A DNA stretch of 64,000 nt, from contig NZ_JAPUDY010000067.1 in the NCBI RefSeq assembly GCF_027492855.1, forward strand, positions 1,541 through 65,540. Direction: 5' to 3'. Source of the stretch: Acidovorax sp. Its GTDB lineage: Bacteria > Pseudomonadota > Gammaproteobacteria > Burkholderiales > Burkholderiaceae_C. Under the pieces are notes generated by a model. The model worked only from the letters and a program-made list of their open reading frames with translations, had not been told where the DNA came from and searched no databases. The position numbers and the translations under genes were made by a program. Positions 8,108 through 55,515 of the stretch are shown in pieces. The stretch's first letter is position 1; each line of letters begins with the position of its first letter.

Positions 8108-8152
8108 GCTCCAGCGCTTATCTAACAAGCGCAAGCAGCTATCAAATTTGAT
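8101..8152 (+). repeat. R1 repeat, copy B; occupies the entire acnD-prpF spacer and contains the acnD stop codon
   Basis: aaaataggctccagcgcttatctaacaagcgcaagcagctatcaaatttgat, followed directly by the prpF ATG at 8153. Confidence 0.85.
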
Positions 8153-9355: not shown

Positions 9356-9416
9356 CAAAAACAGGCTATAGCGCTTGTTCGTCAAGCGCAAGCAGCTATC
9401 AAATAAGTAGCAAATC
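9356..9416 (+). repeat. R1 repeat, copy C; fills the prpF-prpB spacer
   Basis: aaaaacaggctatagcgcttgttcgtcaagcgcaagcagctatcaaataagtagcaaatc, then ATG at 9417. Confidence 0.85.
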
Positions 9417-14906: not shown

Positions 14907-14966
14907 CCGTTCACGCTGAGCCTGTCGAAGCGCTGCGCAAGGCTTCGACAGGCTCAGCCCGAACGG
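14907..14966. repeat. R2 GC-rich palindromic repeat, copy a
   Basis: ccgttcacgctgagcctgtcgaagcgctgcgcaaggcttcgacaggctcagcccgaacgg. Confidence 0.85.
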
Positions 14967-15104
14967 TTCTTGTTTATTGAACGCAAACTGGTATGAGCCC
15001 GCGCGCCGGGTGCTAGCGGGACCTCGCCGCCACAGGGTGGATCATGAGTGATAATCCATTCTCAATAACGCATTTCCCAGCTCGGTTCAGCGCAGACAAC
15101 CTCC

Positions 15105-15916: not shown

Positions 15917-16015
15917 ACCCTTCATTTGGAAACACCCGCATGCACACAGGCATGCGGTGTCGTATCGACACCTTCAGTGCTTGAGAAGCACTTGTCTCAG
16001 ACGCCCCTTCCCCAT

Positions 16016-16087
16016 CCGTTCGGGCTGAGCCCGTCGAAGCCAGGGCGCCCTTTGCCCACAGCCCTTCGACGGGCTCAGGGCGAACGG
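16016..16087. repeat. R2 palindromic repeat, copy b
   Basis: ccgttcgggctgagcccgtcgaagccagggcgccctttgcccacagcccttcgacgggctcagggcgaacggg. Confidence 0.85.
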
Positions 16088-16137
16088 GTCTGTCTGCGGC
16101 ATGTAGCGAATCAAGCTTCAGTGAGAAAGAAAGAACC

Positions 16138-17483: not shown

Positions 17484-17543
17484 ACAAAAATGGCTCTAGC
17501 GCTTTATCAACAAGCGCTAGCAGCTATATTATTGATAGCAATC
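17484..17543 (+). repeat. R1 repeat, copy D
   Basis: acaaaaatggctctagcgctttatcaacaagcgctagcagctatattattgatagcaatcc. Both hairpins are perfect (CTAGCGCTT/AAGCGCTAG and GCTAT/ATAGC). Confidence 0.85.
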
Positions 17544-17913: not shown

Positions 17914-18906
17914 TCAATCCACCTTGATGTTCGCCGCCTTGATCACCTGCGCCCATTTCTCGACTTCGGCCTTCTGGAAGCTGGCGATCTGGGCCACGGT
18001 CAGGTCGGCGGGCTCCATGCCAAAGCCCTTGAGGCGATTTTGCATCTCGGGCTGCGCCAGGATCTTGCGGATCTCGTCATGCAGGCGCGTCACCACCGGC
18101 ACGGGCGTGTTGGCGGGCACGAACACCGCCTGCCACGACTGCACCTGAAAATCCTTGAGCTCCGGCACGCCGGATTCGGCCACCGTGGGCACGTCGGGCA
18201 TCGACGCCAGGCGCTGCGACGAGGTGACCGCAATGGCGCGCAGCTTGCCGCTCTGGATGTGCGGCGAAGCGACCACCGTGGTGTCGAACATCATGTCCAC
18301 CTGGCCGCTGATCACGTCCTGGATGGCCGGGCCGCTGCCCTTGTAAGGCACATGCGTGAACTTCACCCCCGACTTGTAGGCCAGCAGTTCCACGGCCAAA
18401 TGCTGCGAACTGCCCGTGCCAGCCGATGCCGACGACAGGCCACCCTGCCTGCCCTTGGCGGCCGTCAGCACGTCCTTGAGCGTCTTGTACGGGCTGGCGG
18501 CAGACACCACCAGCACCACCGGGTTGGTGCCGATCAGCGTGACGGGGTTGAAGGACTTGATGGGGTCGTAGCCCAGCTTGGGGTACAGGCTGACGTTGAT
18601 GGCGTGCGAGCTGACGGTGCCGCCCAGCAGCGTGTAGCCATCGGGGGCCGAACGTGCCGCCGCCTCCGAGCCGATGCTGCCCGCGGCCCCGCCCTTGTTC
18701 TCCACCACCACCGTGGTACCGAGGGCCGTGCCCAGTTGCTGGCCGATCAGGCGCGCCAATGTGTCGGTGGTGCCACCGGCCGAAAAAGGCACCATGTAGG
18801 TAATCGGCTTGCCAGTGGGCCAGGCGCCCTGCGCCAAGGCGGACAGGCTCAAAAGGCTGCCTGCTGCGACCAAGGCGGCGGATCGGACGAGGGTTCTGCG
18901 TTGCAT
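17914..18906 (-). CDS. Bug-family (TctC-like) tripartite tricarboxylate transporter substrate-binding protein
   Basis: Start at MQRRTLVRSAALVAAGSLLSLSALAQ (ATG 18906), 330 aa. Typical Bug motifs are present (PFSAGGTTD, VENKGGAAG). Confidence 0.88.
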   Translation of the reverse strand: MQRRTLVRSAALVAAGSLLSLSALAQGAWPTGKPITYMVPFSAGGTTDTLARLIGQQLGTALGTTVVVENKGGAAGSIGSEAAARSAPDGYTLLGGTVSSHAINVSLYPKLGYDPIKSFNPVTLIGTNPVVLVVSAASPYKTLKDVLTAAKGRQGGLSSASAGTGSSQHLAVELLAYKSGVKFTHVPYKGSGPAIQDVISGQVDMMFDTTVVASPHIQSGKLRAIAVTSSQRLASMPDVPTVAESGVPELKDFQVQSWQAVFVPANTPVPVVTRLHDEIRKILAQPEMQNRLKGFGMEPADLTVAQIASFQKAEVEKWAQVIKAANIKVD

Positions 18907-22297: not shown

Positions 22298-24676
22298 ATG
22301 ACGCTCGCCCAGCCCTCCCCCGCCCGCCCCGTGCTCACCCACACCCTGGGCTTTCCCCGCATGGGGGCGCAGCGCGAGCTGAAGTTCGCGCTCGAATCCT
22401 TCTGGCGCGGCGACTTGGGCGCTACCGACTTGCAAGACACCGCCGCCCAACTGCGCCAACAACACTGGCAGGCCCAGGCCGACGCGGGCCTGGGCTTTGT
22501 CACCGTGGGCGACTTCGCGCTGTACGACCATGTGGCCAACCACATCCAGCTACTGGGCTGCGAACCTGCGCGCTTCGCGTTCGACGGCGCCACGCCAGAG
22601 CTGGCGCGCTACTTCGCCATGGCGCGCGGAGTGTCGGCCACGGCCACACACACGGACCTGGGCTGCAGCACGGGCTGCACTGCGACACACACCACGCCGG
22701 GCCAGAGCGCACTGGAAATGACCAAGTGGTTCGACACCAACTACCACTACCTTGTGCCCGAGTTCAGCGCCAGCACGCGGTTCCACCTCGCCAGCGAGCG
22801 CCTGTTCGACGAAGTGGCCGAGGCCCAGGCCCAGGGCCACAAGGCCAAGGCCGTGCTGCTGGGGCCGCTGAGCTTTTTGTGGCTGGGCAAGGCCAAGGAG
22901 GCTGGGTTCGACCGCTTCAGCCTGCTGGCGCAACTGCTGCCGGTGTACGAGGCCGTGCTCGCCCGCCTGAAGGCCCAGGGCGTGGAATGGGTGCAGATCG
23001 ACGAACCCATCCTGGGGCTGGATCTGCCCGACACCTGGCGCCACGCCTTCGAGCCCAGCTACTGGCAACTGGCCCGCAGCGCGCCCCCACTGCTGCTGGC
23101 CACCTACTTCTCGCCCCTGGCCGAAAACCTGCGCCTGGCCTGCCAGCTGCCCGTGGCCGGCCTGCATGTGGATGCCGTGCGCGCCCCGGAGGAACTGGTG
23201 GGCGTGGCCGACTGGCTGCCCTCGCACAAGGTGCTGTCGGTGGGCATCGTCGATGGCCGCAACATCTGGCGCACCGACCTCGATGCCGCCCTGGCCCGCC
23301 TCGCCCCCGTGGTCGCCAAGCACCAGGGCGCGCTGTGGCTGGCGCCCTCATGCTCGCTGCTGCACGTGCCGTTCAGCCTGCAGGCCGAAACACAGCTGGA
23401 TGCCGAGGTGAAATCCTGGCTGGCCTTTGCGGTCGAAAAGCTCGACGAGCTGAGCGTGCTGGCCACCGCCCTGGGCCAGGGCGAGGCCGCCGCAGCCGGT
23501 GCCCTGTTGGCCGCCCGCACCGCTATCGCCGCGCGCCGCAGCAGCCCCCGCGTGCACCGCGCCACCGTGGCCGCGCGCCTGGCAGCCGCAGCGCCGGGGG
23601 CCGACCAGCGCACCAGCGCGTTCCCCGCGCGCCAGCAGGCCCAGCGCGCACGCTTGAAGCTGCCGCTGCTGCCCACCACCACCATCGGCTCGTTCCCGCA
23701 GACCGCCGAGATCCGCGCCGCCCGCGCGGCCTTCAAGCGCGGAGCGCTGGACGCTGCCCACTACGAAGAAAAGATGCGCACCGAAATCGCCCTGGCCGTG
23801 CGCAAGCAGGAAGAGCTTGGCATCGACGTGCTGGTACACGGCGAGGCCGAACGCAACGACATGGTTGAATATTTCGGCGAACAGCTCGACGGGTTTGCCT
23901 TCACCGCCAACGGATGGGTGCAAAGCTACGGCTCGCGCTGCGTGAAGCCGCCCATCATCGTCGGCGACGTGGCCCGCCCCGCGCCCATGACCGTGGCCTG
24001 GACGCGGTACGCGCAAAGCCTGAGCAGCCGCCCCATGAAGGGCATGCTCACCGGCCCCATCACCATCCTGCAGTGGAGCTTTGTGCGCGACGACCAGCCC
24101 CGCGCCACCACCGCCGACCAGATCGCCTGGGCCATCCGCGACGAAGTGTGCGACCTGGAAGCCGCAGGCATCGCCATCATCCAGATCGACGAACCCGCCA
24201 TCCGCGAGGGCCTGCCGCTGCGCCGCGCCGGGTGGAAGAGCTACCTTCAGCGCGCCACACGCGCCTTTCGCATCAGCGCGAGCGGCGTGCGCAACGACAC
24301 GCAGATCCACACCCACATGTGCTACAGCGAGTTCAACGACATCCTGCCCGAGATCGCGGCCATGGACGCTGACGTGATCACCATCGAGACCAGCCGCTCG
24401 GACATGGAGCTGCTGCAGGGCTTTGGCACTTTTCAATACCCCAACGAGATCGGCCCCGGCGTGTACGACATCCACTCGCCCCGCGTGCCCAGCGTGCAGG
24501 AGATGACCGCGCTGCTGCACAAGGCCGCCGAGGTGGTGCCGGTGGAAAACCTCTGGGTCAACCCCGACTGCGGCCTCAAGACCCGAGGCTGGCCCGAGAC
24601 CGAGGCGGCGCTGCGCCACATGGTGCAGGCGGCGCAGGAGGTGCGGGCGCAGTTGGAGGAAGCCGTGATTGCATAG
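22298..24676 (+). CDS. metE: Cobalamin-independent methionine synthase
   Basis: ATG at 22298 ([33 protein letters not shown]), 792 aa, with [12 protein letters not shown] and the C-terminal motifs IQIDEPA and HMCYS. Confidence 0.92.
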
Positions 24677-24713
24677 TCGAATTGGCCGATTTCGCGGACA
24701 CGCGGACAGGACA

Positions 24714-25647: not shown

Positions 25648-25744
25648 CCCGACTGCGGCCTCAAAACCCGAGGCGGCATTGCGCCACATGGTGCAGGCGG
25701 CGCAGGAGGTGCGGGTGCAGTTGGAGGAAGCCGTGAGCGCGTAG
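25648..25744 (+). pseudogene. Displaced duplicate of the metE 3-prime end (remnant)
   Basis: cccgactgcggcctcaaaacccgaggc..cgccacatggtgcaggcggcgcaggaggtgcgggtgcagttggaggaagccgtgagcgcgtag matches metE 24563-24676, apart from a 17-nt gap and a few mismatches. Confidence 0.85.
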
Positions 25745-25746
25745 CC

Positions 25747-25806
25747 AAATGAGCTGCCAGCGCTTTTTCAACAAGCGCTGGCAGCTCTCCTGTTAATAGC
25801 AAACAA
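25747..25806 (+). repeat. R1 repeat, copy E
   Basis: aaatgagctgccagcgctttttcaacaagcgctggcagctctcctgttaatagcaaaca, with a perfect 13-bp stem GCTGCCAGCGCTT/AAGCGCTGGCAGC. Confidence 0.8.
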
Positions 25807-28132: not shown

Positions 28133-28192
28133 AAAAAAATACCACTGGCGCTTATCTACAAAGCGCAAGCAGCTATTAATTGAATAGCAAAA
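28133..28192 (+). repeat. R1 repeat, copy F (in the panE / marR divergent region)
   Basis: aaaaaaataccactggcgcttatctacaaagcgcaagcagctattaattgaatagcaaaa. Confidence 0.85.
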
Positions 28193-30391: not shown

Positions 30392-30451
30392 CCGTTCACG
30401 CTGAGCCAGTCGAAGCGCCGCACCAGGCTTCGACAAGCTCAGCCCGAACGG
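30392..30451. repeat. R2 palindromic repeat, copy c
   Basis: ccgttcacgctgagccagtcgaagcgccgcaccaggcttcgacaagctcagcccgaacgg. Confidence 0.85.
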
Positions 30452-30500
30452 TGGGGGGTAGAAAACCCGAACAACAACACATTCCTGAAAGACCACAGCC

Positions 30501-33470: not shown

Positions 33471-33529
33471 TAAAAATAGCTGCTTTCGCTTATTCAACAA
33501 GCGCAAGCAGCTATGTTTTTAGTAGCAAA
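33471..33529 (+). repeat. R1 repeat, copy G
   Basis: aaaaatagctgctttcgcttattcaacaagcgcaagcagctatgtttttagtagcaaat. The stem AGCTGCTTTCGCTT/AAGCGCAAGCAGCT pairs at 13 of 14 positions. Confidence 0.85.
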
Positions 33530-33568
33530 TACCGCCATCCCTCACGCTGGGACCGCCGCTCCGGGGCC

Positions 33569-37060: not shown

Positions 37061-37198
37061 CCGTTCACGCTGAGCCTGCCTGTCCTGAGCTTCGTCGAAG
37101 GGTCGAAGCGCCGCGCAGGGCTTCGACAGGCTCAGCCCGAACGGCTGGGGGGCGGCTATGCAACTCGTTCACCGTTCCGCCTGAGCTTGTCGAAGGCC
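37061..37198. repeat. R2 repeat, composite copy e (full copy with an internal insertion plus a partial copy)
   Basis: ccgttcacgctgagcctgcctgtcctgagcttcgtcgaagggtcgaagcgccgcgcagggcttcgacaggctcagcccgaacgg, then ..gttcaccgttccgcctgagcttgtcgaagg. Confidence 0.75.
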
Positions 37199-40409: not shown

Positions 40410-40462
40410 GTTTCCAGTCTTTTTGCCTGGCCATGAGCATCCCTCACACACTTTCCCCCAGT

Positions 40463-40535
40463 CCGTTCGGGCTGAGCCTGTCGAAGCCAGGGCGCCCTGT
40501 ACCCACAGCCCTTCGACTGGCTCAGGGCGAACCGG
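40463..40535. repeat. R2 palindromic repeat, copy f
   Basis: ccgttcgggctgagcctgtcgaagccagggcgccctgtacccacagcccttcgactggctcagggcgaaccgg. Confidence 0.85.
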
Positions 40536-40568
40536 TTTCTCAGAGGCAAACACCTCGTTATTCAAGCC

Positions 40569-40622
40569 TTTTTGGCCTCTAGCGCTTATCCATCAAGCGC
40601 AAGCAGCTATCAAATTCATACC
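40569..40622 (+). repeat. R1 repeat, copy H (33 bp after R2 copy f)
   Basis: tttttggcctctagcgcttatccatcaagcgcaagcagctatcaaattcatacc. Confidence 0.85.
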
Positions 40623-40655
40623 ATTTCTTTCACCACTACCTCTGGAGACAGCAGC

Positions 40656-43189: not shown

Positions 43190-44083
43190 ATGCATATGAC
43201 ACCGATTCACATCCCCAGCGCCGGGCGGCCCGCCTCCGGCAAGGCCCTGGCTGCGATCACGTTGGCGGCACTGCTGGCCGCCTGCGGCAGCCAGCCCCAG
43301 GGAGCCCCCATGACGCAGCCCCCTTCTCACTCTTCCACCACCCCCTCTTCTTCGCTCCATGCAGCCCCGACCTCCGCCCACACGCTGCAGGCCTATGACT
43401 GGGATTTGGTGTCCGCGCACGATGCCCGGGGCCAGGCGGCGCCGGGCTGGCTGCTGGCCGGCCGCAGCCCGCTGCGCCTGCACTTTGAGGCCCAGCGGCT
43501 GTCGGTGCAAAACCTGTGCAACGCCATGGGCGCGGGTTACACGTTGCAAGGCCCGGGCCTGCAGGTGGGCCAGCCCGTGTCCACCAAACGCGCCTGCGCC
43601 GACCGCGACTTGATGGCGCTGGAGCAGCGTGTGGGCGCCCTGCTGCCCCAGGCGCAGCGGTTTGAACTGCGGAGCGGCGGCGCCGCCGCCACCAACGCGC
43701 CGCAGCTGGCGGTGTAGTTTGCCGATGGCAGCCGATGGGAACTGGCCGGCACCCCCACGCCCGCCACGCGCTACGGCACGGCGGGCGAGCGCCTGTTTCT
43801 GGAAGTGGCCCCCGAGCGCGTGGCCTGCAACCACCCGTTGATGCCCCACGCCCAATGCCTGCGCGTGCGCGATGTGCGCTATGCCGACAACGGTGTGCGC
43901 CAGGGCGTGGGCGAGTGGCGCATCTTCCAGGGCGAGATCGACGGCTACCGCCACGAGCCGGGGCTGCGCAATGTGCTGCGGGTGCAGCGCTACTCGCTGG
44001 CGCGCAACGGCCAGTTGCCCGCCGATGCACCCAGCCATGCCTATGTGCTGGACCTGGTGGTAGAGGCAGAACGGGTGCGCTAG
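43190..44083 (+). pseudogene. META (HslJ-like) plus DUF4377-type lipoprotein gene interrupted by one in-frame TAG
   Basis: ORFs 43190-43717 and 43805-44083 share one frame. The stretch ..APQLAV-TAG-FADGSRWELAGTPTPATRYGTAGERLFLEVAPERVAC.. reads through coherently. A lipobox LLAACG is present. Confidence 0.6.
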
Positions 44084-44141
44084 GCCCCAAACTTCAAGCC
44101 CAAAGTGCCTGACGATGTATCTATCTCAGAGTCCGATCCAA

Positions 44142-44215
44142 CCGTTCGGGCTGAGCCTGTCGAAGCCAGGGCTTGCCGCGTGGGTGCAAGGCTTCGACAG
44201 GCTCAGCCCGAACGG
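44142..44215. repeat. R2 palindromic repeat, copy g
   Basis: ccgttcgggctgagcctgtcgaagccagggcttgccgcgtgggtgcaaggcttcgacaggctcagcccgaacgg. Confidence 0.85.
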
Positions 44216-44252
44216 TTGGAGGAGAAGCATCTGAGGCATGCACATAATCAGG

Positions 44253-44311
44253 AAAAAATGCCGCTACCGCTTGTCCATCAAGCGCAAAAAGCTATCAAAA
44301 CAGTAGCATAT
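44253..44311 (+). repeat. R1 repeat, copy I (37 bp after R2 copy g)
   Basis: aaaaaatgccgctaccgcttgtccatcaagcgcaaaaagctatcaaaacagtagcatat. Confidence 0.8.
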
Positions 44312-44437
44312 TTGCGGCACTGACTCAGACACCGCTACAGGCACCCATGCCGTCGCCGCAGCGCGCAAAAAAACGCTGTTCGAACGCGCTGGCAAGCAGC
44401 CCCGCCTTGCAAACCTGTGCAGACGCTGCTGCGCAAA

Positions 44438-44474
44438 GAAAAAACCCTGGTGCTATCAACGCACCAGGGGTTTT
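44438..44474 (-). terminator. Rho-independent terminator downstream of icd
   Basis: On the minus strand: aaaacccctggtgc-gttgata-gcaccagggttttttctttg. Confidence 0.75.
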
Positions 44475-44534
44475 GCCAAGGCCTTTCAGGCTTCTTTTGT
44501 CGGGGCGTTCTGATTCGCCCCGAAACCGGAGGGG

Positions 44535-45794
<1,260 letters not shown>

Positions 45795-45976
45795 GGGGGA
45801 AGAGTCTCCAGGGTGCGCCGAGACGGGCCCGGCAAGGTAAGCATTCAAACCATTCTAATGAGAAAAAATTTCGTCCAAAACCCTGTCAACGCAACTCTCG
45901 CTGCTATCGTTGCGGGTGGAGCTGTACGGTGTTTCGTACGGCCCTCAACCCTTCGCTCACTTTGGAAACGGCATAT

Positions 45977-46192
45977 ATGAAAAAACTCCTCGCTGTCCTC
46001 GTGTCCGGTCTGTTCGCTGCCGGTGCTTTCGCACAGGCGCCCGCAGCCGCTCCAGCCACGCCTGCTCCTGCTGCAGCCCCCATGGCCGCCCAAACCCAGG
46101 CCCCTGCCCCGGCAGCCAAAGCCACTCACATCGCCAAGAAAAAGAGCACCAAGAAGGTCGCTAAGAAAAAGACCGCTCACAAGGCCGCCTGA
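45977..46192 (+). CDS. Small secreted Ala/Pro/Lys-rich protein (Asr-like composition)
   Basis: 71 aa with signal peptide MKKLLAVLVSGLFAAGAFAQA, then AP-rich and KKKSTKKVAKKKTAHKAA. A terminator follows. Confidence 0.6.
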   Translation: MKKLLAVLVSGLFAAGAFAQAPAAAPATPAPAAAPMAAQTQAPAPAAKATHIAKKKSTKKVAKKKTAHKAA

Positions 46193-46253
46193 GCCAGGGA
46201 ATCCGGGTCTGGCACAAGTCCCACGCGTTGCCAGGCCTGCACTGATTCAAAAT

Positions 46254-46277
46254 CGCCCGCATCTGCGGGCGTTTTTA
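46254..46277 (+). terminator. Rho-independent terminator
   Basis: cgcccgc-atct-gcgggcgttttt. Confidence 0.8.
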
Positions 46278-46374
46278 TTGGGAGGACCAAAGACTTCCAT
46301 TGCCGAAACGTCCCCGCGCCGTACAGTCCGCCTACAGTCTGCCCTTAGAACGTGTTGACCAGAAAGCCCCGTCC

Positions 46375-46905
46375 ATGACCGCCCTTCGCGCCGCCCCGCT
46401 GCTCCCCGCCACCGGTAAACGCCTTGATCGTCGTCTCGCAACTCTCGCACGCCAAACACTCCGCGCCGCTTGCGCCTTGGCGCTGGCGTCGGTCGTCCCC
46501 GCAGTGGCCACGGCCCAGGAGGGCCCGCAGATGAACCTGCAGCGCGTCGAGCTGACCGCAGGCATGCACCGCATCGACGCCCAGTTGGCCCAGGCCCCGC
46601 AAGAGCGCCAGACCGGCCTGATGTTCCGCAAGGAGATGCCCCAGCACGAGGGCATGTTGTTCGTGTTCGAGCAGCCCACGCAGCAGTGCTTCTGGATGAA
46701 GAACACCCTGCTGCCGCTCACCGCCGCTTTCGTGGCCGACGACGGCACCATCGTGAACCTGGCGGACATGAAGCCCCAGACGCTCGACTCGCACTGCTCC
46801 GCCAAGCCCGTGCGTTATGTGCTGGAGATGAACCAGGGCTGGTTCGCCAAGAAGGGCATCAAGGCCGGCACCAAGCTTGTGGGCGCGCCGTTCAGCCGCA
46901 AATGA
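46375..46905 (+). CDS. DUF192 domain protein (secreted)
   Basis: Start uncertain (ATG 46375, or TTG 46300). ERQTGLMFRKEMPQHEGMLFVF..CFWMKNTLLPLTAAF is typical of DUF192. Confidence 0.7.
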   Translation: MTALRAAPLLPATGKRLDRRLATLARQTLRAACALALASVVPAVATAQEGPQMNLQRVELTAGMHRIDAQLAQAPQERQTGLMFRKEMPQHEGMLFVFEQPTQQCFWMKNTLLPLTAAFVADDGTIVNLADMKPQTLDSHCSAKPVRYVLEMNQGWFAKKGIKAGTKLVGAPFSRK

Positions 46906-46927
46906 TGATGGGGCTGTAGCGCCTTCA

Positions 46928-46986
46928 ATTTGCTATATTTTTGATAGCTTATAGCGCTTGATACACAAGCGCTACCTGCCAAAAAG
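46928..46986 (-). repeat. R1 repeat, copy J (inverted orientation)
   Basis: atttgctatatttttgatagcttatagcgcttgatacacaagcgctacctgccaaaaag. Confidence 0.85.
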
Positions 46987-47017
46987 ACTAAAAAAATAAT
47001 CCACCCAGTCAACCCCA

Positions 47018-47047
47018 TAAAAAAACGGCCCGAGGGCCGTTTTTTTA
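47018..47047. terminator. Bidirectional rho-independent terminator (sodB / DUF192 gene)
   Basis: aaaaaaacggcc-cgag-ggccgttttttt. Confidence 0.8.
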
Positions 47048-47090
47048 TGGCAGGCCGCCGGGTAGAACACCCCACGGCCATGCGCCTGCA

Positions 47091-47672
47091 TCAAGCGAAG
47101 TTGGCTTCAGCAAACTTCCAGTTCACCAGTTTGTCGAGGAAGGTTTCGACGAACTTGGGGCGCATATTGCGGTAGTCGATGTAGTAGGCGTGTTCCCACA
47201 CGTCCACCGTCAGCAGCGCCTTGTCGGCGGTGGTCAGGGGCGTGCCGGCGGCGCCGGTGTTGACGATGTCCACGCTGCCGTCGGGCTTCTTCACCAGCCA
47301 GGTCCAGCCCGAGCCGAAGTTGCCCACGGCGCTCTTCACAAAGGCTTCCTTGAAGGCGGCGTAGCTGCCCCACTTGGCGTTGATGGCCGCAGCCAGCGCG
47401 CCAGATGGCTCACCGCCGCCCTGGGGTGCCATGCAGCTCCAGAAGAAGGTGTGGTTCCAGATCTGAGCTGCGTTGTTGTAGATGCCGCCGCTCGACTTCT
47501 TGACGATCTCTTCGAGCGTCATGGCTTCGAACTCGGTGCCCTTTTGCAGGTTGTTGAGGTTCACCACATAGGCGTTGTGGTGCTTGCCGTGGTGGTACTC
47601 CAGGGTTTCCTGGCTGTAGCTCGGGGCCAGGGCATCGATGGCGTAGGGCAGCGGGGGAAGGGTATGTTCCAT
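47091..47672 (-). CDS. sodB: Fe/Mn-family superoxide dismutase (Fe-type)
   Basis: 193 aa, [45 protein letters not shown]. Confidence 0.92.
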
Positions 47673-47878
47673 GGTGGTGTTTCCTCGTGGTTTGAATTTC
47701 TAGGATGCCATCTGCAACGCGCTCTTTCCTGAGCCATGCAGCCGGACACAAAGCGAAGGGGGCATTGTAGGAAGATCGGGTGACCTGTGCAGCCTCAGGG
47801 TGACCCAGCTCAAAAGAAAGCCTCCCCCAAAAGGCTATATGCACCTGCCCAGGCCACGCCAGGAACAGGTTGGCGCAC

Positions 47879-49213
47879 TCACAGCAGCCGTGGCTGGGCG
47901 GCCACCGTCACGTCCACCGCCCCATCGGACAGCGTGGCCCGCAGTGCGGCGCCGACCGGGGCCTGGCGCACGCTGGTCACGGCCTGGCCGCCTGCGTCGG
48001 TAAGCAGCGCATAACCGCGCTGCAGCACCAGGCGGGGGTCCAGCAACTCCAGCCGCAAGGCCGCGCGGTCGAGCCGCTCGGCCTGTTGGGCCACGCTGCG
48101 CTGCAGCTTGATAGGTAAATCAGCCGCCAGCGCTTGTTGTGATTGGATCAAACGCTGCATTTTTAATAGCACACCATGGCGCATGCGCTGGGCCAGGCGG
48201 GCCAGTTGCATCTGCTCGCGCGCGACCAGCCCCGAGGGGCGGCCCAGGCGCGCGGCGGCCTGGTCAAGCCGCTGGTGGCGGGCGTCGAGCTGGCGCTGCA
48301 CGCCGTCGCCCATGCGCCCCGCCAGCAGGCCCAGCGCGCCCAGCCACACGTCGCGCGGCTGGGCCACCAGTTCGGCCGCCGCCGTGGGCGTGGGCGCGCG
48401 CAGGTCGGCGCAGAAGTCGGCGATGGTGAAGTCGGTCTCGTGCCCCACGCCGCTGATGAGCGGCACCGGGCTTTGCACGATGGTGCGGGCCAGTTGCTCG
48501 TCGTTGAAGGCCCACAGGTCTTCGATGGAGCCGCCGCCGCGCACCAGCAGGATGATGTCGATGGGTGGATTCCGGGTCAAATCAGCCCCTGGCGCTTGTC
48601 CTGCCTGCGCAAGCAGATACAGTTTTGATAGCGCGGCGACGATGGACGGCGGCGCGGCCACGCCCTGCACCTGCGCGGGCACCAGCACCACGGGGATGTG
48701 TGGCACCCGGCGGCGCAGCGCCGTGACCACGTCATGTAACGCCGCCGCGCCGGGCGAGGTGACCAGGCCGATGCCACGCGGCTGCAGTGGCAGCGGGCGC
48801 TTGCGGGCGGTGTCGAACAGGCCTTCGGCGTCGAGCTGGGCCTTCAGGCGCAGGAACTGCTCGAACAACGCGCCCTGCCCGGCCCGCTGCATGTTTTCGA
48901 CGATGAACTGCAGATCGCCGCGCGCCTCGTACACCCCAAGGCGGCCGCGCAACTCCACCAATTCACCATCGCGCGGCGAAAAGTCAAGCAGGCTGGCCGC
49001 GCGGCGGAACATGGCGCAGCGCAGCTGGCCGTTGGCGTCCTTGATCGAGAAGTAGCAATGCCCGCTGGACGCGCGCGAGAAGCCCGTGATCTCGCCGCGC
49101 ACCGCTACAGGGTTGAATCGGGCCTCCAGGGCATCAGCAATGGCGCGGCACAGCGCGCCAACTTCCCACACACGCGGCGCCACGCCTGGGTTTGTGCGCT
49201 CAAACATCAGCAA
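47879..49213 (-). CDS. xseA: Exodeoxyribonuclease VII large subunit, carrying two in-frame R1-derived segments
   Basis: 444 aa with an OB-fold N-terminus, then RGGGSIEDLWAFNDE, GVGHETDFTIADFCADLRAPTPTAAAE and a coiled-coil tail. Confidence 0.9.
   Translation of the reverse strand: MLMFERTNPGVAPRVWEVGALCRAIADALEARFNPVAVRGEITGFSRASSGHCYFSIKDANGQLRCAMFRRAASLLDFSPRDGELVELRGRLGVYEARGDLQFIVENMQRAGQGALFEQFLRLKAQLDAEGLFDTARKRPLPLQPRGIGLVTSPGAAALHDVVTALRRRVPHIPVVLVPAQVQGVAAPPSIVAALSKLYLLAQAGQAPGADLTRNPPIDIILLVRGGGSIEDLWAFNDEQLARTIVQSPVPLISGVGHETDFTIADFCADLRAPTPTAAAELVAQPRDVWLGALGLLAGRMGDGVQRQLDARHQRLDQAAARLGRPSGLVAREQMQLARLAQRMRHGVLLKMQRLIQSQQALAADLPIKLQRSVAQQAERLDRAALRLELLDPRLVLQRGYALLTDAGGQAVTSVRQAPVGAALRATLSDGAVDVTVAAQPRLL
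48117..48172 (+). repeat. R1-like segment K inside xseA (in frame; encodes VLLKMQRLIQSQQALAADLP)
   Basis: aaatcagccgccagcgcttgttgtgattggatcaaacgctgcatttttaatagcac. Confidence 0.6.
48579..48632 (+). repeat. R1 copy L inside xseA (in frame; encodes ALSKLYLLAQAGQAPGADL)
   Basis: aaatcagcccctggcgcttgtcctgcctgcgcaagcagatacagttttgatagc. Confidence 0.75.
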
Positions 49214-49559
49214 CGGCGGGCGTTTGCGCCGCGCTCGCCTTGCGAGTACTCCACAGAAACCGGCAAGCGGCGGTGCGGACCTGGGTCAAGGCAGCACCTG
49301 CCCGGAAAGCACCAGCGCACGTGCAAGTTATTGATTTATATACATTTTTCATTGCGCAATTTTTCATCAATCTGTTGCAAGCACGGTGTGGAGCCGCTTT
49401 GCGGGGCCCTCAACGTGGGTTGCCCACAAAGTTATCCACAGTTTTTGTGGGTGAGCGGAGGAAGGGATGGCGTGCACGGCAACGTAACGGTTTGTGACGC
49501 GGCAGCACCTGTAAGCTGGGCCATAATCGCCGTTTGCTTTCATCTGCGCGGAGAGAGAT

Positions 49560-50204
49560 TTGCTGTCCATCATACAAGCCGCAGGCTGGCCCATCTGGCC
49601 CCTGATCGCGTGTTCCGTCCTGGGGCTGGCACTGATTTTTGAACGTTTCCTGGCCCTCAAAACGGCCCGCGTCGCACCGCCCAAACTCCTGGACGAAGCC
49701 ATCACGGTGTCGTCCAAAGCCCTGCCCACGCCCGATGTGGTGAACCAGCTCGCGCAGAACTCGGCCCTGGGCGAGGTGTTGGCCAGCGGCCTGCGCACCA
49801 TGAACAGCAACCCCCAGTGCAGCGAAACCGACCTGCGTGCCGCCATGGAAGGCACCGGCCGCGCGGTGGCCCACCGGCTGGAGAAATACCTCGCCGCCCT
49901 GGCCACCATCGCCTCGGCCGCGCCGCTGCTGGGCCTTTTGGGCACCGTGATCGGCATGATCGAGATCTTCGGATCGCAGGCGGGCGGCGGCGGCGTGGGC
50001 CAGGCCATGGGCGGCGGCAACCCCACCCAGTTGGCGCACGGCATCTCGATCGCCCTGTATAACACCGCCTTCGGCCTGATCGTGGCCATCCCTGCGCTGA
50101 TCTTCTGGCGCTACTTCCGCGCCCGTGTGGACGGCTACCTGCTCACGCTGGAGCTGGCCTCCGAGCAGTTCGTGCGCCATATCCTGCGTCTTCGCAAGAA
50201 ATGA
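49560..50204 (+). CDS. exbB: MotA/TolQ/ExbB-family proton channel protein
   Basis: 214 aa with a TTG start, containing LATIASAAPLLGLLGTVIGMI. Confidence 0.85.
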   Translation: MLSIIQAAGWPIWPLIACSVLGLALIFERFLALKTARVAPPKLLDEAITVSSKALPTPDVVNQLAQNSALGEVLASGLRTMNSNPQCSETDLRAAMEGTGRAVAHRLEKYLAALATIASAAPLLGLLGTVIGMIEIFGSQAGGGGVGQAMGGGNPTQLAHGISIALYNTAFGLIVAIPALIFWRYFRARVDGYLLTLELASEQFVRHILRLRKK

Positions 50205-50310
50205 GGCCCCCACGGTCGGCCCGCTGCGCGTGGCTCCCTGCTCCCCGAGGGGGACGCGTTTTGCCTTGGGGCGGCCCGGCGGCAAAACCTCAGCCTGAAA
50301 GGCTTCGCCA

Positions 50311-50748
50311 ATGAACTTCCGCCCCCGCACCAAGGATGAGCCCGAGATCAACCTGATCCCGTTCATCGACGTGCTGCTGGTGATCCTCATCTTTCTGATG
50401 CTGACCACCACCTACAGCAAGTTCACCGAGCTGCAGCTCACCTTGCCCGTGGCCGATGCCGAGCAACAGCGCGACCACCCCAAGGAAGTCATCGTGGCGG
50501 TGGCCGCCGATGGCCGCTATGCCGTCAACAAAACCGGCGTGGACGGCAAGGGCGTGGACGCCATCGCCCAGGCGCTGCGCAGCGCCGCCACGGCGGGGCC
50601 GGGCAGCGTGGTCATCATCAGCGCCGACGCCATGGCGCCGCACCAGTCCGTGGTCACGGTGATGGAGGCCGCGCGCCGCGTGGGCCTCACGCAGATCACC
50701 TTCGCCACGCAGTCATCGTCTGCGTCCACGCGCGCGGCCAGCCGCTGA
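50311..50748 (+). CDS. exbD: ExbD/TolR-family biopolymer transport protein
   Basis: 145 aa containing [19 protein letters not shown]. Confidence 0.85.
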
Positions 50749-50753
50749 CGGGC

Positions 50754-51824
50754 ATGCCCCAAACACCCGCCCCCCGAGCCACGGCCGAGCGGGGCCTGCA
50801 AACCATCTGGCAGACGCGCGGCCCGGCCGCCTGGGCGCTGTGGCCGGTGTCGCTGCTGTATCGCGCCCTGGTGGCGCTGCGCCGGGGGCTGTACCGCACC
50901 GGCCTGCTGCGCGCCGAGCACCCCGGCCGCCCCGTCATCGTGGTGGGCAATGTGATCGCGGGGGGCGCGGGCAAGACCCCGGTGGTCATCGCACTTGTGC
51001 AGCACCTAAAGGCCCGTGGGCTGCGCGCAGGTGTGGTCTCGCGTGGCTACGGCCGCAGCGGCCAGGACTGCCGCGCGGTGCTGCCCGACAGCCTGGCCAG
51101 CGAAGTGGGCGATGAACCCTTGCTGATCGCCCGCAGCCTGGGCGGTGGCAACGCCGTGCCGGTCTTCGTGGCCCCGCGCCGCATCACCGCAGCCCGCGCG
51201 CTGCTGGCGGCCCACCCCGACACCGACGTGATCGTCTGCGACGACGGCTTGCAGCACCTGGCGCTGCGGCGCGACCTGGAAATCTGCATCTTCAACGACG
51301 AGGGCATTGGCAACGGCTTTCTGCTGCCCGCAGGCCCCCTGCGCGAACCCTGGCCGCGTCGCGTGGATTTTGTGCTGCATGCGGGCAACGCCGCCCCCCA
51401 GGAAACGCAGGCCCCGGCGTTTGGCCTGCAGCGCCGCCTGGCGCCCCATGCACGGCGCTCCGACGGCAGCCAGGTGCCATTGGCCAGCCTGCGCGGCCAG
51501 CCCCTGCACGCACTGGCCGCCGTGGCGCGGCCCGGCGACTTCTTTGCCATGCTGCAGGCCGAGGGCCTGACGTTCGCGCGCATCGAGGCCTTGCCGGATC
51601 ACTATGATTTTGATAACTGGCAGCGCTTATCAGACAAGCGCCATCCCTTGATTTGCACCGAAAAGGATGCCGTCAAGCTGTGGTCCCGGCACCCTGACGC
51701 GCTGGCCGTGCCGCTGGCAGTGCACGTCGATCCCCTCTTTTTTGACGCCCTGGATACCCGGCTGTCGGCGCTGCTGCCCACGGCGGCGGCCCCCAAGCCG
51801 CCGCTATCATCCCCTTTTGCCTGA
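50754..51824 (+). CDS. lpxK: Tetraacyldisaccharide 4-prime-kinase
   Basis: 356 aa with [13 protein letters not shown] (P-loop), SRGYGR and TEKDAVKL. Confidence 0.9.
51607..51655 (+). repeat. R1 core hairpin M inside lpxK (in frame; encodes [16 protein letters not shown])
   Basis: attttgataactggcagcgcttatcagacaagcgccatcccttgatttg. The core agcgcttatcagacaagcgc is nearly identical to intergenic copy B. Confidence 0.6.
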
Positions 51825-51837
51825 ACGAACCCGCTCC

Positions 51838-52020
51838 ATGGACCCCAAACTGCTTGAACTGCTGGTCTGCCCCGTCACCAAAGGCCCCCTGACCTATGAC
51901 CGCGAGGCGCAGGAACTCGTCTCGCGCAGCGCACGGCTGGCCTACCCGGTGCGCGACGGCATTCCGGTGCTGCTCGAAAACGAAGCCCGCACGCTGACCG
52001 ACGAGGAGCTGGAGCGGTGA
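51838..52020 (+). CDS. Trm112/YcaR-family small protein
   Basis: 60 aa, [46 protein letters not shown]. Confidence 0.85.
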
Positions 52021-52835
52021 ACAGCACAACGGCTTTGGCGGCAGGCAGCAGCTTCACCGTGCTGATCCCGGCCCGCATGGCGTCAAGCCGCCTGCCCGAC
52101 AAGCCCCTGGCCGACATTGCCGGCCTGCCCATGGTGGTGCGGGTGGCCCAGCGCGCCGCACAAAGCGCCGCCACCCGCGTGGTGGTGGCCGCCGACGACG
52201 CCCGCATTCTTGCGGCCTGCGCAGCCCATGGCGTGCAGGCCGTGATGACCCGTGCAGACCACGCCAGCGGCAGCGACCGGCTGGCCGAAGCCTGTGCCCA
52301 ATTGGGGCTGGATGGCGACGACATCGTCGTCAACGTGCAAGGCGACGAGCCCTTGATGGACCCCGGCCTCATCAACGCCGTGGCGGCCCTGCTGCCCGCG
52401 AGGCCCGAGGCCAGCATGGGCACGGCCGCCCACGCCATTGCCTCGCCGGCCGACTACGCCAACCCCAACGTGGTGAAGGTGGTGCTGGACGCACGGGGCC
52501 TGGCGCACTACTTCAGCCGCGCGCCCATTCCCTTCGCCCGCGACCATGCGGGCACCGCCTGGTGGCAAGGCGCCGCACAAGCCGCAGCCCCTGGGGTGGC
52601 CGCGCTGCAGGGCTTTGCGCCGCTGCGGCACATCGGCATCTACAGCTACCGCGCGGGGTTTCTGCGGCAGTTTCCGCAGCTCGCCCCTGCCCCCACCGAA
52701 GCGGTCGAGGCCCTGGAACAACTGCGTGCGCTCTGGCACGGCCACCACATCGCGGTGCATCTGGCGGCCACCGCACCCGGCCCCGGCGTGGACACGCCCG
52801 AAGACCTGGAGCGGGTGCGCGCGCTGCTTGGCTAA
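52017..52835 (+). CDS. kdsB: 3-deoxy-manno-octulosonate cytidylyltransferase
   Basis: The GTG start overlaps the upstream stop. Motifs are [15 protein letters not shown] and VNVQGDEP. Confidence 0.9.
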
Positions 52836-53007
52836 ACCCTCTGCCGCCCTTGTGCGCGCCCCCTTTTGGAGAGCGTCACCTATGTAAGTCAGCGCAAGGT
52901 AGTCACATGCTATCCTCGCCCGCAACCAGAGCACCGCATCCCGGACGCACAGAATGGCCAGAGGCGCCCTTCGAACGCCCCTGCCAGCGGCGCCACCCGA
53001 TTTCTAA

Positions 53008-53679
<672 letters not shown>

Positions 53680-53731
53680 TGTACGGGGGCTGACCACTGA
53701 TCAGCCCCATCGACGGCCTCAATTCGATGCG

Positions 53732-53760
53732 GCGACGCCCCACAAGGGCGTCGCTTTTTT
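53732..53760 (+). terminator. Rho-independent terminator after adk
   Basis: gcgacgccc-cacaa-gggcgtcgctttttt. Confidence 0.8.
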
Positions 53761-53797
53761 CATGGTGCAGCAGCGCCCTGCGCCGCACAGGTCTCTG

Positions 53798-54757
53798 TCA
53801 GCCCGCGCGCAGCAAATCAAGCACCAGCGCCACCCGCGCCTTCACCGGCGACAACCCCCGCGAGTCTGGGAACACATCTCCCGGCTTGGGCAGCACCTGC
53901 CCCTCGGCGCAGCGGGTGGCACGCACCACCTGCACCCCCGCATCCTGCGCGCGCAGCAAAGCGGCCTCCAAGGCGTGGTGAATGGTTCCGTTGCCGGTGC
54001 AGGCCACCACCAGGCCTTGCACCCCGTCGCGCACCAGGGCATCCACCCCTCGGCCCGTGGCCCCGGCATGGCTGACAACCACTTCGACCCAGGGCCATTC
54101 GCCAGCATTTGCTATATTTTCAATAGCACCTTGCGATTGACCAACCTGCGCTAGAGGCCAATTTTCTACCAAACGCACCCGCCCCTCCTCCACCCATCCC
54201 AAAGGCCCGGCATCGCCCGAATGAAAGGCATGCACTCGGTAGGGATGCGCTTTTTGCACGTAACGCGCACCGTGGATTTCCCCGGCGGCCACCAGCATCA
54301 CTCCCGTGGCGCCGGGGGCCTGCACCACGGCCACGGCATCAAGCAGGTTCTGCGGACCATCGGGCGTGAGGGCCGTGGCGGGGCGCATGGCGCAGGTCAG
54401 CACCACGGGCTTGCGGGCATCCAGCACCTCGTGCAAAAACCATGCGGTTTCTTCCAGGGTATCGGTGCCGTGCGTGATGACCAGGCCCCGCACCTCAGGG
54501 TCGTTCAAATGGTGCGCGCAGCGCAAGGCCAAGGCCCGCCACACCGCGCAGTCCATGTCCTTGCTGTCGACCTGGGCCACCTGCTCCGCCACCAGTGCGC
54601 CACCCGCCATGGCTTGCAACCCCGGAACGGCAGCCAACAGCTGTGCCACCCCCACCTGGGCAGCGGTGTAGCCAATGTTGTCCCCCGCCTGCGCCGAGGT
54701 GCCTGCAATCGTGCCCCCGGTGCCTAAAACCACAATTTTTTGCCCACTCACTTGCAT
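53798..54757 (-). CDS. L-asparaginase (no signal peptide) carrying an in-frame R1 copy
   Basis: 319 aa with VVLGTGGTIAG and ITHGTDTLEETAWFL. Confidence 0.85.
   Translation of the reverse strand: MQVSGQKIVVLGTGGTIAGTSAQAGDNIGYTAAQVGVAQLLAAVPGLQAMAGGALVAEQVAQVDSKDMDCAVWRALALRCAHHLNDPEVRGLVITHGTDTLEETAWFLHEVLDARKPVVLTCAMRPATALTPDGPQNLLDAVAVVQAPGATGVMLVAAGEIHGARYVQKAHPYRVHAFHSGDAGPLGWVEEGRVRLVENWPLAQVGQSQGAIENIANAGEWPWVEVVVSHAGATGRGVDALVRDGVQGLVVACTGNGTIHHALEAALLRAQDAGVQVVRATRCAEGQVLPKPGDVFPDSRGLSPVKARVALVLDLLRAG
54107..54165 (-). repeat. R1 copy N inside the asparaginase gene (in frame; encodes ENWPLAQVGQSQGAIENIANA)
   Basis: atttgctatattttcaatagcaccttgcgattgaccaacctgcgctagaggccaatttt. Confidence 0.75.
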
Positions 54758-54785
54758 ACTCCGAAAAACTGGTGAAAAATACAGT

Positions 54786-54805
54786 TACTGGATTAAAAAA
54801 CAGTT
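54786..54805. promoter_or_regulatory. SOS box (LexA operator) upstream of lexA
   Basis: taCTGgattaaaaaaCAGtt gives CTG-N10-CAG spacing with an AT-rich centre. It ends 36 bp upstream of the lexA ATG. Confidence 0.6.
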
Positions 54806-54840
54806 ATTCATCACTGTAACCGCCGCCACCGGAAACCACC

Positions 54841-55515
54841 ATGCTCGACAACCCCAAACTCACCGCCCGCCAGCAGCAGATTCTGGACCTCATCCAGACC
54901 GCCATCGCGCGCACCGGCGCCCCTCCAACCCGCGCAGAAATCGCGGCCGAGCTGGGGTTCAAGTCGGCCAACGCCGCAGAAGAGCACCTGCAGGCCCTGG
55001 CCCGCAAAGGTGTGATCGAACTGGTCAGCGGCACGTCGCGCGGTATTCGCCTGCGTGGCGACACAGTGCGCTCCATCAATGCAGCGCGTGGCAACCAGTT
55101 CAGCCTGCCCATTCCGGGCCTGTCGCAGCTGGTTCTGCCCTTGGTGGGGCGCGTGGCGGCGGGTTCTCCCATTCTCGCGCAGGAGCATGTAGACCAGACC
55201 TACAGTGTGGAAAACAGCCTTTTCCAGCACAAGCCCGACTACCTGCTCAAGGTGCGCGGCATGTCCATGCGCGACGCCGGCATCATGGATGGCGACCTGC
55301 TCGCCGTGCAGTCCACGCGCGAGGCACGCAACGGCCAGATCATCGTGGCCCGCCTGGGTGACGATGTCACCGTCAAGCGCCTGCGCCGCACCGCCACCGC
55401 CATCGAGCTGCTGCCCGAAAACCCCGACTACCCGGTGATCGTGGTGCAGCCCGGCGAACCCTTCGAAATCGAAGGCCTGGCGGTCGGCCTCATCCGCAAC
55501 ACCATGCTGATGTAG
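54841..55515 (+). CDS. lexA: LexA repressor
   Basis: 224 aa, [34 protein letters not shown], with the cleavage and peptidase motifs (VAAGSP, GMSM). Confidence 0.93.

Follow-up and report, generated by a model that had tools for sequence, protein, structure and literature searches.

Segments derived from a dispersed repeat lie in frame within the xseA gene of Acidovorax

The stretch of DNA analysed here, 64,000 nt of contig NZ_JAPUDY010000067.1 from an Acidovorax sp. genome (assembly GCF_027492855.1; hereafter the window), carries on its minus strand, at 47879–49213, the gene xseA for the large subunit of exodeoxyribonuclease VII (ExoVII). The gene is an intact open reading frame (ORF) of 444 aa, with an OB fold and the Pfam domains PF02601 (Exonuc_VII_L), PF13742 and PF01336; its product shows 91% identity with XseA from Acidovorax sp. 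Root267 and 90% with XseA from A. facilis, and matches E. coli XseA (PDB 8TXR) with an E-value of 3e-84. The arginine of the RGGGS motif, R205 in the E. coli enzyme, is catalytic (PMC3439923), and its equivalent here is R225. The tail of XseA binds XseB. This region was called a coiled coil in a 2012 paper (PMC3439923); the 2024 ExoVII structure paper describes it as not a typical coiled coil, with a length that changes in quantised steps, one step being one XseB-binding unit, and with a weak sequence requirement, XseB gripping the helix at a few key hydrophobic positions (PMC10835039). Two segments of this gene concern us, one just before the RGGGS motif (site 1) and one in the tail (site 2), together with the dispersed repeat, R1, from which both are derived.

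The dispersed repeat R1 is real and measures about 60 nt, reaching about 75 nt in some lineages; repeat finding and a core-motif scan of the 64-kb window gave ten clean intergenic copies. With four further copies inside genes, the density comes to about one copy per 5 kb. The consensus, in the orientation of the model, reads cAAAAATAGgCTCTAGCGCTT-loop-AAGCGCAAGCAGCTATCAAAttaGTAGCAAAT and forms two hairpins, a long imperfect one around GCGCTT-N5-7-AAGCGC and a small one of the form GCTAT-N7-ATAGC; it is AT-rich, within a genome of 65% GC. The intergenic copies fold with −13 to −21 kcal/mol (z −3.2 to −4.7), score 47–59 bits in nhmmer against the profile made from the ten of them, and lie mostly directly 3′ of genes or in short intergenic gaps, one of them beside a canonical terminator. 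The best-scoring copy, which serves as the reference, is at 9357–9415 on the plus strand (two hairpins, z −3.9). The nhmmer search placed others on the same strand at 2595–2655, 8098–8150, 17484–17543, 25744–25804, 28135–28191, 33472–33530, 40568–40624 and 44252–44311. The copy closest to xseA, at 46928–46984 on the minus strand (47.4 bits; hairpin z −4.05), is in the spacer between a DUF192 gene and sodB, where it adjoins the canonical terminator hairpin of sodB. This spacer copy is present in four Acidovorax genomes (the window, L001, L081 and L082) and not in L083 (Acidovorax sp. Leaf76), and the spacer is too variable to delimit an empty site or a target duplication.

Counting all copies in the window, orientation is biased 11:3. 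Eleven are model-oriented on the plus strand (those from 2595 to 44252 and both xseA copies) and three on the minus strand (the copy at 46928 and those in lpxK and an asparaginase gene, described below). GC skew is negative over the entire window, which therefore lies on one replichore. No Rfam family matched at its gathering score in the window, and between 44000 and 49500 there were only sub-threshold matches, none near the gathering score. In a promoter and terminator scan of 44000–55000, the R1 copies showed no signal above chance; a single promoter-like match (48580–48552) overlaps the end of site 1, in a scan that returned 2 such matches against 1.2 expected. In the seed alignment, the aligned ends of R1 (cAAAAAT... 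and ...TAGCAAAT) lack complementarity, and direct repeats flanking them are not apparent, a systematic search for these not having been made.

Two nhmmer profiles were used to ask which coding segments resemble R1. The window profile was built from the ten intergenic copies alone, with xseA excluded. The cross-genus profile was built from 23 copies from 10 loci, with the orthologues of xseA, lpxK and the asparaginase gene masked, and replaced an unmasked iterated profile that had drawn in lpxK orthologues. One copy from ybiB (in Albidiferax, L007) is present in the 23-sequence training set, and the key matches were independently confirmed by the window profile. Site 1 (48575–48634, minus strand; aa 194–213), whose coding strand is the reverse complement of the model orientation, matched the window profile at 48577–48632 over model positions 2–57 (17.8 bits, E 1.4e-4) and the cross-genus profile with 33.8 bits (E 1.9e-9). 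Site 2 (48107–48172, minus strand; aa 348–369, VLLKMQRLIQSQQALAADLPIK) shares the orientation and codon phase of site 1. It matched the window profile at 48117–48138 over the right half of the model only (4–25; 11.5 bits, E 0.013) and the cross-genus profile over positions 3–26 (12.4 bits, E 0.01), and its left half has decayed in this genome. The orthologous site of A. soli (L001) gives a full-length match of 24.2 bits (E 2e-6), and that of L081 scores 18.3 bits. The first-pass annotation of this DNA had proposed R1-like sequence at both places in xseA, and profiles from intergenic copies alone do recognise both, site 2 through its right half.

These scores were compared with those of 2000 codon-shuffled xseA sequences. 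With the window profile, none reached 17.8 bits, the score of site 1, and two reached 11.5 bits, the score of site 2; with the cross-genus profile, none exceeded 10.7 bits. The two sites also resemble each other, as had been claimed. Both are read in phase 0, and their peptides, ALSKLYLLAQAGQAPGADLT and VLLKMQRLIQSQQALAADLP, agree at 9 of 20 residues and the underlying DNA at 38 of 60 nt, which is the maximum among the 81,810 in-frame 60-nt pairs within xseA and is reached by only two pairs. Third codon positions are A or T in 11 of the 20 codons of site 1 (p 5e-5) and in 12 of the 22 of site 2 (p 3e-5), against 15.5% gene-wide. Both xseA segments are thus R1-derived. The two peptides are conserved in Acidovorax, most commonly as ALSKLYLLAQAGQAPGADL at site 1 and LLKLQRLAQSQQALEADLP at site 2; across five Acidovorax genomes, all four intragenic sites known from the window are orthologous and diverge by point substitutions, with R1 scores from 6 to 35 bits. 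Because the ORF is intact and the peptides are conserved within the genus, the segments are presumably translated and harmless.

The hairpin has not been kept. Site 1 and site 2 fold no better than shuffled sequence (z +0.85 and about −0.5, versus −3.2 to −4.7 for intergenic copies), orthologous copies in xseA of other genera show no exceptional fold either (z −1.35 to +0.80), and the long hairpin is kept in no intragenic copy examined; the strong hairpin is found only in intergenic R1. The suggestion that a housekeeping gene here tolerates a palindromic repeat is therefore not borne out, since the palindrome is precisely what xseA has lost.

Site 1 falls, by homology to 8TXR, after a catalytic-domain helix and before the β-strand leading to RGGGS. 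From IVRAIE/IVAALS to DVLIV/DIILLV there are 22 residues here and 8 in E. coli XseA, confirming the longer spacer that had been noted. The spacing from VQG to RGGGS, taken over 150 diverse XseA representatives of which 139 were measurable, has its mode at 29 aa (83 of 139) and is 43 aa in the present protein. The R1 match spans 19 codons, and the net gain is about 14 aa. What had been described as an insertion of about 45 nt is therefore a true extra segment of about that size, but it is neither recent nor precise. In our set of 80 xseA loci from reference genomes, the length of site 1 varies continuously from 12 to 36 residues across 51 Comamonadaceae-type orthologues. One locus, from an uncultured Curvibacter metagenome-assembled genome (L044), was left out, because its xseA frame breaks after about aa 320 and runs of N lie in the stretch; the breakdown is probably an assembly artefact.

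Close relatives that lack the element, to which the first-pass annotation had looked for comparison, do not appear, for every Acidovorax sequence seen carries the site 1 insert. The distant orthologues, free of R1, mostly lack an equivalent segment, as that annotation would have it: 24 of the 26 with less than 58% identity (from Roseateles, Rubrivivax, Ideonella, Caldimonas and similar genera) have 11–16 residues at this place. Between these extremes, R1-like, AT-rich DNA occupies the same position in the same orientation in xseA orthologues of the Rhodoferax, Polaromonas, Albidiferax and Extensimonas types (E 1.7e-7 in L013, 2.3e-5 in L014, 4.4e-5 in L030 and 4.6e-4 in L023); Comamonas and Delftia have a GC-rich version of the peptide, and Variovorax only an LQSLYAL remnant. 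In the Rhodoferax-like group the insert is 22–24 aa longer than the basal state and contains the AT-rich extension of R1 (GATTTTCCTTATAAAAAG), which is likewise found beside an intergenic copy in L013, a member of the same lineage. Such an insert is what one would get if a 70–75-nt element were simply inserted, and the Acidovorax segment looks like a trimmed derivative. Site 1 is thus a true extra segment, old, common to many Comamonadaceae genera and absent outside the family. R1 itself follows the same boundary: matches occur only in loci whose XseA identity is at least 60%, with none in the 27 outgroup loci (426 kb), so that within our sample R1 is confined to Comamonadaceae-type genomes.

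An AlphaFold2 model offers a view of how the extra residues might be accommodated. The alignment behind it was shallow (66 sequences at ≥82% identity) and the mean predicted local distance difference test score (pLDDT) of the whole model was 56, and only local secondary structure was used: a helix at 187–206, a loop at 207–219 and a strand at 220–225, with local pLDDT 71–85. The R1-coded residues are predicted to extend the native helix and then to form a loop. At the codon level, Leu195 is encoded by CTA in 16 of 26 insert-bearing taxa, which makes it the top outlier of 171 columns in a binomial test for rare codons; that test is overdispersed, its p-values being inflated by shared ancestry, and is useful for ranking within a gene.

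Site 2 presents a different picture. It lies in the helical, XseB-binding tail, the region that the earlier placement called a coiled coil and that the 2024 structure paper does not regard as a typical one (PMC10835039). No net change in length accompanies it. The PTPSAAA-to-RGY spacing measures 116 aa here, as it does in nearly every Burkholderiales orthologue, outgroups included, and is otherwise only 94 or 138 aa. By length, then, site 2 is not an insertion, contrary to what had been proposed; it occupies approximately one 22-aa period of the tail. Over a wider diversity of XseA, tail lengths cluster at about 95, 116, 138, 160 and 184 aa. Single steps are seen as a loss of 22 aa in L041 and L070 and a gain of 22 aa in L043, L063 and L077, all next to site 2, the gain in L063 being a clear tandem duplication. 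These 22-aa variants independently reproduce the quantised tail length of the 2024 structure paper (PMC10835039). Since deletions and duplications of 22 aa do occur beside site 2, an insertion followed by the loss of a neighbouring period is possible there.

R1-like segments are not limited to xseA. Two others in the window fall in genes that a gene caller based on GC content at third codon positions (GC3), a rough guide only, had missed while calling shadow ORFs. In lpxK (50754–51824), a match at 51598–51655 on the plus strand (E 5.6e-7 with the window profile) covers 58 nt that encode 19 aa between the universal PDH and TEKDAVK motifs, in an R1 frame different from that used in xseA. The segment is common to many Comamonadaceae genera and scores up to 35 bits in L083, and the length of lpxK agrees with that of outgroups within 1 aa, leaving no net insertion. 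Moreover, one R1 arm overlies the native motif PDHYDF, where Aquifex LpxK reads PDHYDYSDF. In the asparaginase gene (53798–54757), the match at 54107–54165 on the minus strand (E 3.4e-5), with the coding strand in the R1 model orientation, forms the stretch that links the N-terminal to the C-terminal domain (NWPLAQVGQSQGAIENIAN; …SQGAIENIAN…), the Pfam domains covering residues 7–199 and 224–313. Compared with relatives, no clear difference in length is seen. The pattern GCT ATx ... ATA GCA is retained by 10 lineages spread over several genera, always with ATA for Ile, a codon that makes up 8% of the Ile codons in this comparison; lineages without the R1 box have unrelated sequence of the same length.

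A fifth intragenic site came from a survey of all the DNA fetched. In ybiB, which encodes a TrpD2-type DNA-binding protein, Albidiferax L007 has a near-consensus R1 at 18417–18474 (39 bits). Orthologues of ybiB were not found among the xseA loci, and the gene was compared through protein homologues and three encoding contigs. At the same position of the coding sequence (nt 373–432 in L084, L085 and L086), Polaromonas scores 29 bits and Rhodoferax koreense 24 bits, and Variovorax terrae matches partly. The repeat overlies a native VLxALGI…AIxKIANG segment, whose VLxALGI is also found in E. coli YbiB; among 120 homologues there is no indel at the R1 segment, and E. coli YbiB has 4 aa more in this region. 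GC3 of the segment is 0.29–0.64, compared with 0.78–0.90 for the gene. The ATA codon is kept in four genera, and GCTAT...ATAGCAAA is kept even in Variovorax terrae, with a GC3 of 0.90. Taking the genes together, R1 is read in three frames, of which two belong to one orientation and the third to the other, and four of the five intragenic sites are length-neutral.

We consider it somewhat probable, at about 0.55, that the xseA segments are old R1 copies that have become ordinary coding sequence of a functional XseA. We infer insertion as their origin, and the events would have run as follows. At site 1, early in Comamonadaceae evolution, an R1 copy would have inserted where a surface helix is joined to the RGGGS strand. 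Of the frames in that orientation, it would be read in the only one that escapes the TAG of CTAGAG. The copy's 5′ part would have become an extension of the helix (LSKLYLLAQAGQ) and its 3′ part a loop (APGADLT...), which different lineages then trimmed or lengthened, producing the present range across the family. At site 2, R1-derived sequence in the same frame would fill about one 22-aa XseB-binding period of the tail. Such a tail may tolerate almost any helix with the right hydrophobic face while its length is fixed in steps, and for this reason R1 would persist there only as a length-neutral replacement, whether by insertion and subsequent loss of a neighbouring period or by replacement of a patch. 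At both sites, the strong hairpin would then have decayed, leaving a resemblance in primary sequence, AT-rich codons and peptides akin to each other, and the peptides would now be under purifying selection.

Several observations weigh against this account. A net gain in length is seen only at site 1, R1 bringing little or no change of length at site 2, in lpxK, in the asparaginase linker and in ybiB. Because R1 overlies native conserved motifs without any change in length, simple insertion does not explain the segments of lpxK and ybiB, and a scheme of insertion followed by deletion becomes awkward there. Rare, A- or T-ending codons of the R1 box persist across genera between which synonymous sites are expected to be saturated; the persistence of CTA in xseA and of ATA in the asparaginase gene and ybiB may point to DNA-level constraint or homogenisation, unlike the behaviour of passive fossils. 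The single-gene neighbour-joining tree of XseA is too weak to tell whether there were several gains or a single old one with many losses. Finally, the mobility of R1 is unproven, because terminal inverted repeats, target-site duplications and a linked transposase were not seen, no systematic search for them having been made.

The length-neutral overlays and the conserved rare codons are fitted better by an alternative in which the intragenic R1 boxes, especially GCTAT-N7-ATAGCAAAT and its flank, are selected DNA or RNA sites, or are rewritten by ectopic conversion or short-patch replacement that draws on the hundreds of R1 copies in the genome. Overall we hold this possibility tentatively. It would have most intragenic copies arise or persist without insertion, wherever the protein sequence is permissive, a proposition that we regard as doubtful but worth keeping. 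The neutrality of four of five sites, the placement on native motifs in lpxK and ybiB, the ATA codon in all 10 R1-bearing asparaginase lineages beside box-less lineages of equal length, the ybiB box of Variovorax terrae and the ranking of the Leu195 codon all speak for it, as does the range of R1 scores at orthologous sites among the five Acidovorax genomes. The xseA arms, too, read GCGC in Acidovorax and GCCC/GGGC in the Rhodoferax-like group, and the few sampled intergenic copies differ likewise. Yet the basis of this co-variation is one or two positions, with a very small number of intergenic copies; the codon test gives p-values of 1e-11 to 1e-14 for ordinary columns of lpxK and the asparaginase gene, while the R1 columns of lpxK are not outliers; and within Acidovorax the sites differ by point substitutions of the ordinary kind, no conversion tracts being visible. 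There is no known binding factor or function, the promoter and terminator scans gave nothing above chance, and the long hairpin is preserved in no intragenic copy. We would not go beyond calling it possible that R1, or its GCTAT-N7-ATAGCAAAT box with flanks, is a functional element or a substrate of ongoing conversion or microhomology-mediated patch replacement, maintained at the nucleotide level throughout the family. Were this so, R1 would imprint its sequence on those parts of housekeeping genes that permit it, leaving their length as it was, and the segments of xseA, lpxK, ybiB and the asparaginase gene would be dual-coding, for protein and for an R1 site.

The remaining explanations concern the history of the copies. 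Site 1 could have been entered separately in several Comamonadaceae lineages, by an R1 with a strong target preference for the same xseA codon; the long and short states of the site are indeed patchy on the XseA tree, the 3′ extent of the insert varies, and its arms resemble the local R1 type. We find this improbable, given that the 5′ junction, orientation and frame are identical in all lineages, that the peptides can be aligned and their continuum of lengths resembles decay, that Comamonas and Delftia have the GC-rich versions expected after long residence, and that all five Acidovorax copies are orthologous. Descent in the reverse direction, with R1 derived from a mobilised gene fragment, for instance of ybiB or lpxK, would make the R1-likeness of that gene ancestral and would accommodate R1-like DNA on native motifs without an indel. 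It is nevertheless very unlikely: the intragenic copies are further from the consensus and have no hairpin, and because at most one gene can be the source, the two xseA sites cannot be explained in this way. As for mere chance, a fortuitous likeness to R1 of AT-rich codons for helix or linker might be suspected at site 2, where only 22–24 nt of the model match in this genome at E 0.01–0.013. In view of the codon shuffles, the full-length match in A. soli, the exceptional similarity of sites 1 and 2 to each other and the recurrence of matches at the same positions across genera, we give this explanation hardly any credence.

Peptides that derive from repeats and are read in frame within essential or housekeeping proteins are best documented in Rickettsia and are often deemed peculiar to reduced, intracellular genomes. 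If the xseA segments are indeed old R1 copies, the same kind of event has taken place in a large, free-living, GC-rich lineage, with an apparently undescribed repeat, and has been fixed over family-level divergence. Acidovorax, Rhodoferax and Polaromonas would thereby provide a tractable system for how repeats become protein sequence, and the copy in the XseA tail a natural experiment on an XseB-binding helix that is tolerant in sequence and quantised in length (PMC10835039). If instead the length-neutral copies reflect selection at the DNA level or templated patch replacement, they would represent a kind of change in coding sequence that standard annotation and the ratio of nonsynonymous to synonymous substitution rates (dN/dS) miss. 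For us, the main interest lies in these unexplained copies, length-neutral and conserved in their nucleotides, in several housekeeping genes.

Apart from R1, the window has an 83-nt direct repeat at 24600–24682 and 25668–25750, 90% identical and 1068 nt apart, at the 3′ ends (…EEAV…stop) of neighbouring ORFs, which suggests a tandem paralogue or a partial duplication.

R1 can be compared with several known kinds of repeat. Uptake signal sequences (USS) and DNA uptake sequences (DUS) have an exact core of 9–12 nt, occur within genes at orthologous positions, in preferred frames and without a change in length, and are often found as inverted pairs after genes when intergenic. Intragenic R1 shares with them the presence of a motif in coding regions at orthologous positions across species and with no effect on length. 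It differs in being a loose consensus of 60 nt instead of a short exact core. Repetitive extragenic palindromic sequences (REPs) and the bacterial interspersed mosaic elements (BIMEs) resemble R1 as abundant imperfect palindromes located after genes or near terminators, possibly with an orientation bias (11:3 for R1). The REP palindrome is 20–40 nt, carries a conserved GTAG/CTAC tag and is associated with RAYT transposases, whereas R1 is about 60 nt, with two hairpins and AT-rich arms, and stands out as AT-rich in a GC-rich genome; REPs are extragenic by definition, whereas four R1 copies of the window are genic. By its length, its two hairpins and its genic copies, R1 does not fit the description of a REP or BIME. 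A survey paper on REPs does not mention the Comamonadaceae genera of this analysis.

Within the family, a Beta-proteobacterial repeat element (BRE) of about 90 bp and 69% GC, often in tandem, is known from Bordetella and Comamonadaceae (PMC3110155). Like R1, it is a repeat of Comamonadaceae with some copies wholly within coding sequences, according to its authors (PMC3110155). R1 as BRE was rejected, the one being AT-rich and about 60 nt, the other about 90 bp and 69% GC. In the literature, searched by lineage, keyword and sequence strings, we found no publication describing R1; the first-pass belief that such elements are undescribed for this lineage thus stands for R1 and has to be qualified for in-gene repeats generally, in view of BRE (PMC3110155). 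A second palindromic family of the window, GC-rich (…CCGTTCGGGCTGAGCCTGTCGAAGCC…GGCTTCGACAGGCTCAGCCCGAACGG…), lies at 14907–14967, 16010–16101, 30392–30452, 37085–37145, 40457–40548 and 44137–44220 and often adjoins R1 (40457/40568 and 44137/44252). By published description only, it fits BRE (PMC3110155). One of its copies, at 44144–44213, gave a sub-threshold Rfam match to AaHKsRNA41 (34.9 bits versus a gathering score of 97).

Closer to what is seen in xseA are the intragenic copies of miniature transposable elements with inverted repeats (MITEs) and enterobacterial repetitive intergenic consensus (ERIC) sequences (Delihas 2007, 2011; review PMC10969869). These are small, non-autonomous and mostly intergenic, with occasional in-frame copies that give rise to new peptide segments, as R1 does. 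By contrast, neither terminal inverted repeats nor target-site duplications nor a parent insertion sequence were seen for R1, in work that included no systematic search for them, and its intragenic copies do not vary from strain to strain but are fixed throughout the family. Rickettsia palindromic elements (RPEs) are palindromic repeats of about 150 bp that occur in frame inside genes (Ogata et al. 2000, 2002, per review PMC10969869). The parallel with RPEs drawn at the outset is a reasonable one, in that both are dispersed, multi-copy palindromic families with in-frame copies in unrelated, intact housekeeping genes, to which they add or supply a peptide (PMC10969869); the R1 peptide at site 1 of xseA, moreover, is absent from orthologues outside the lineage. 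There are differences nonetheless. R1 is about 60 nt and supplies 19–22 aa, against about 150 bp for RPEs (PMC10969869), and it uses three reading frames, where RPEs have one conserved ORF. Its host is free-living, with 65% GC, whereas that of RPEs is reduced and intracellular. The genic R1 copies are old, orthologous across genera and decayed in their hairpin, and four of the five add no length and partly overlie native motifs. With these differences in mind, the closest analogue of genic R1 is the RPEs, together with the wider class of intragenic MITE and ERIC copies that have been fused in frame to the genes that hold them.

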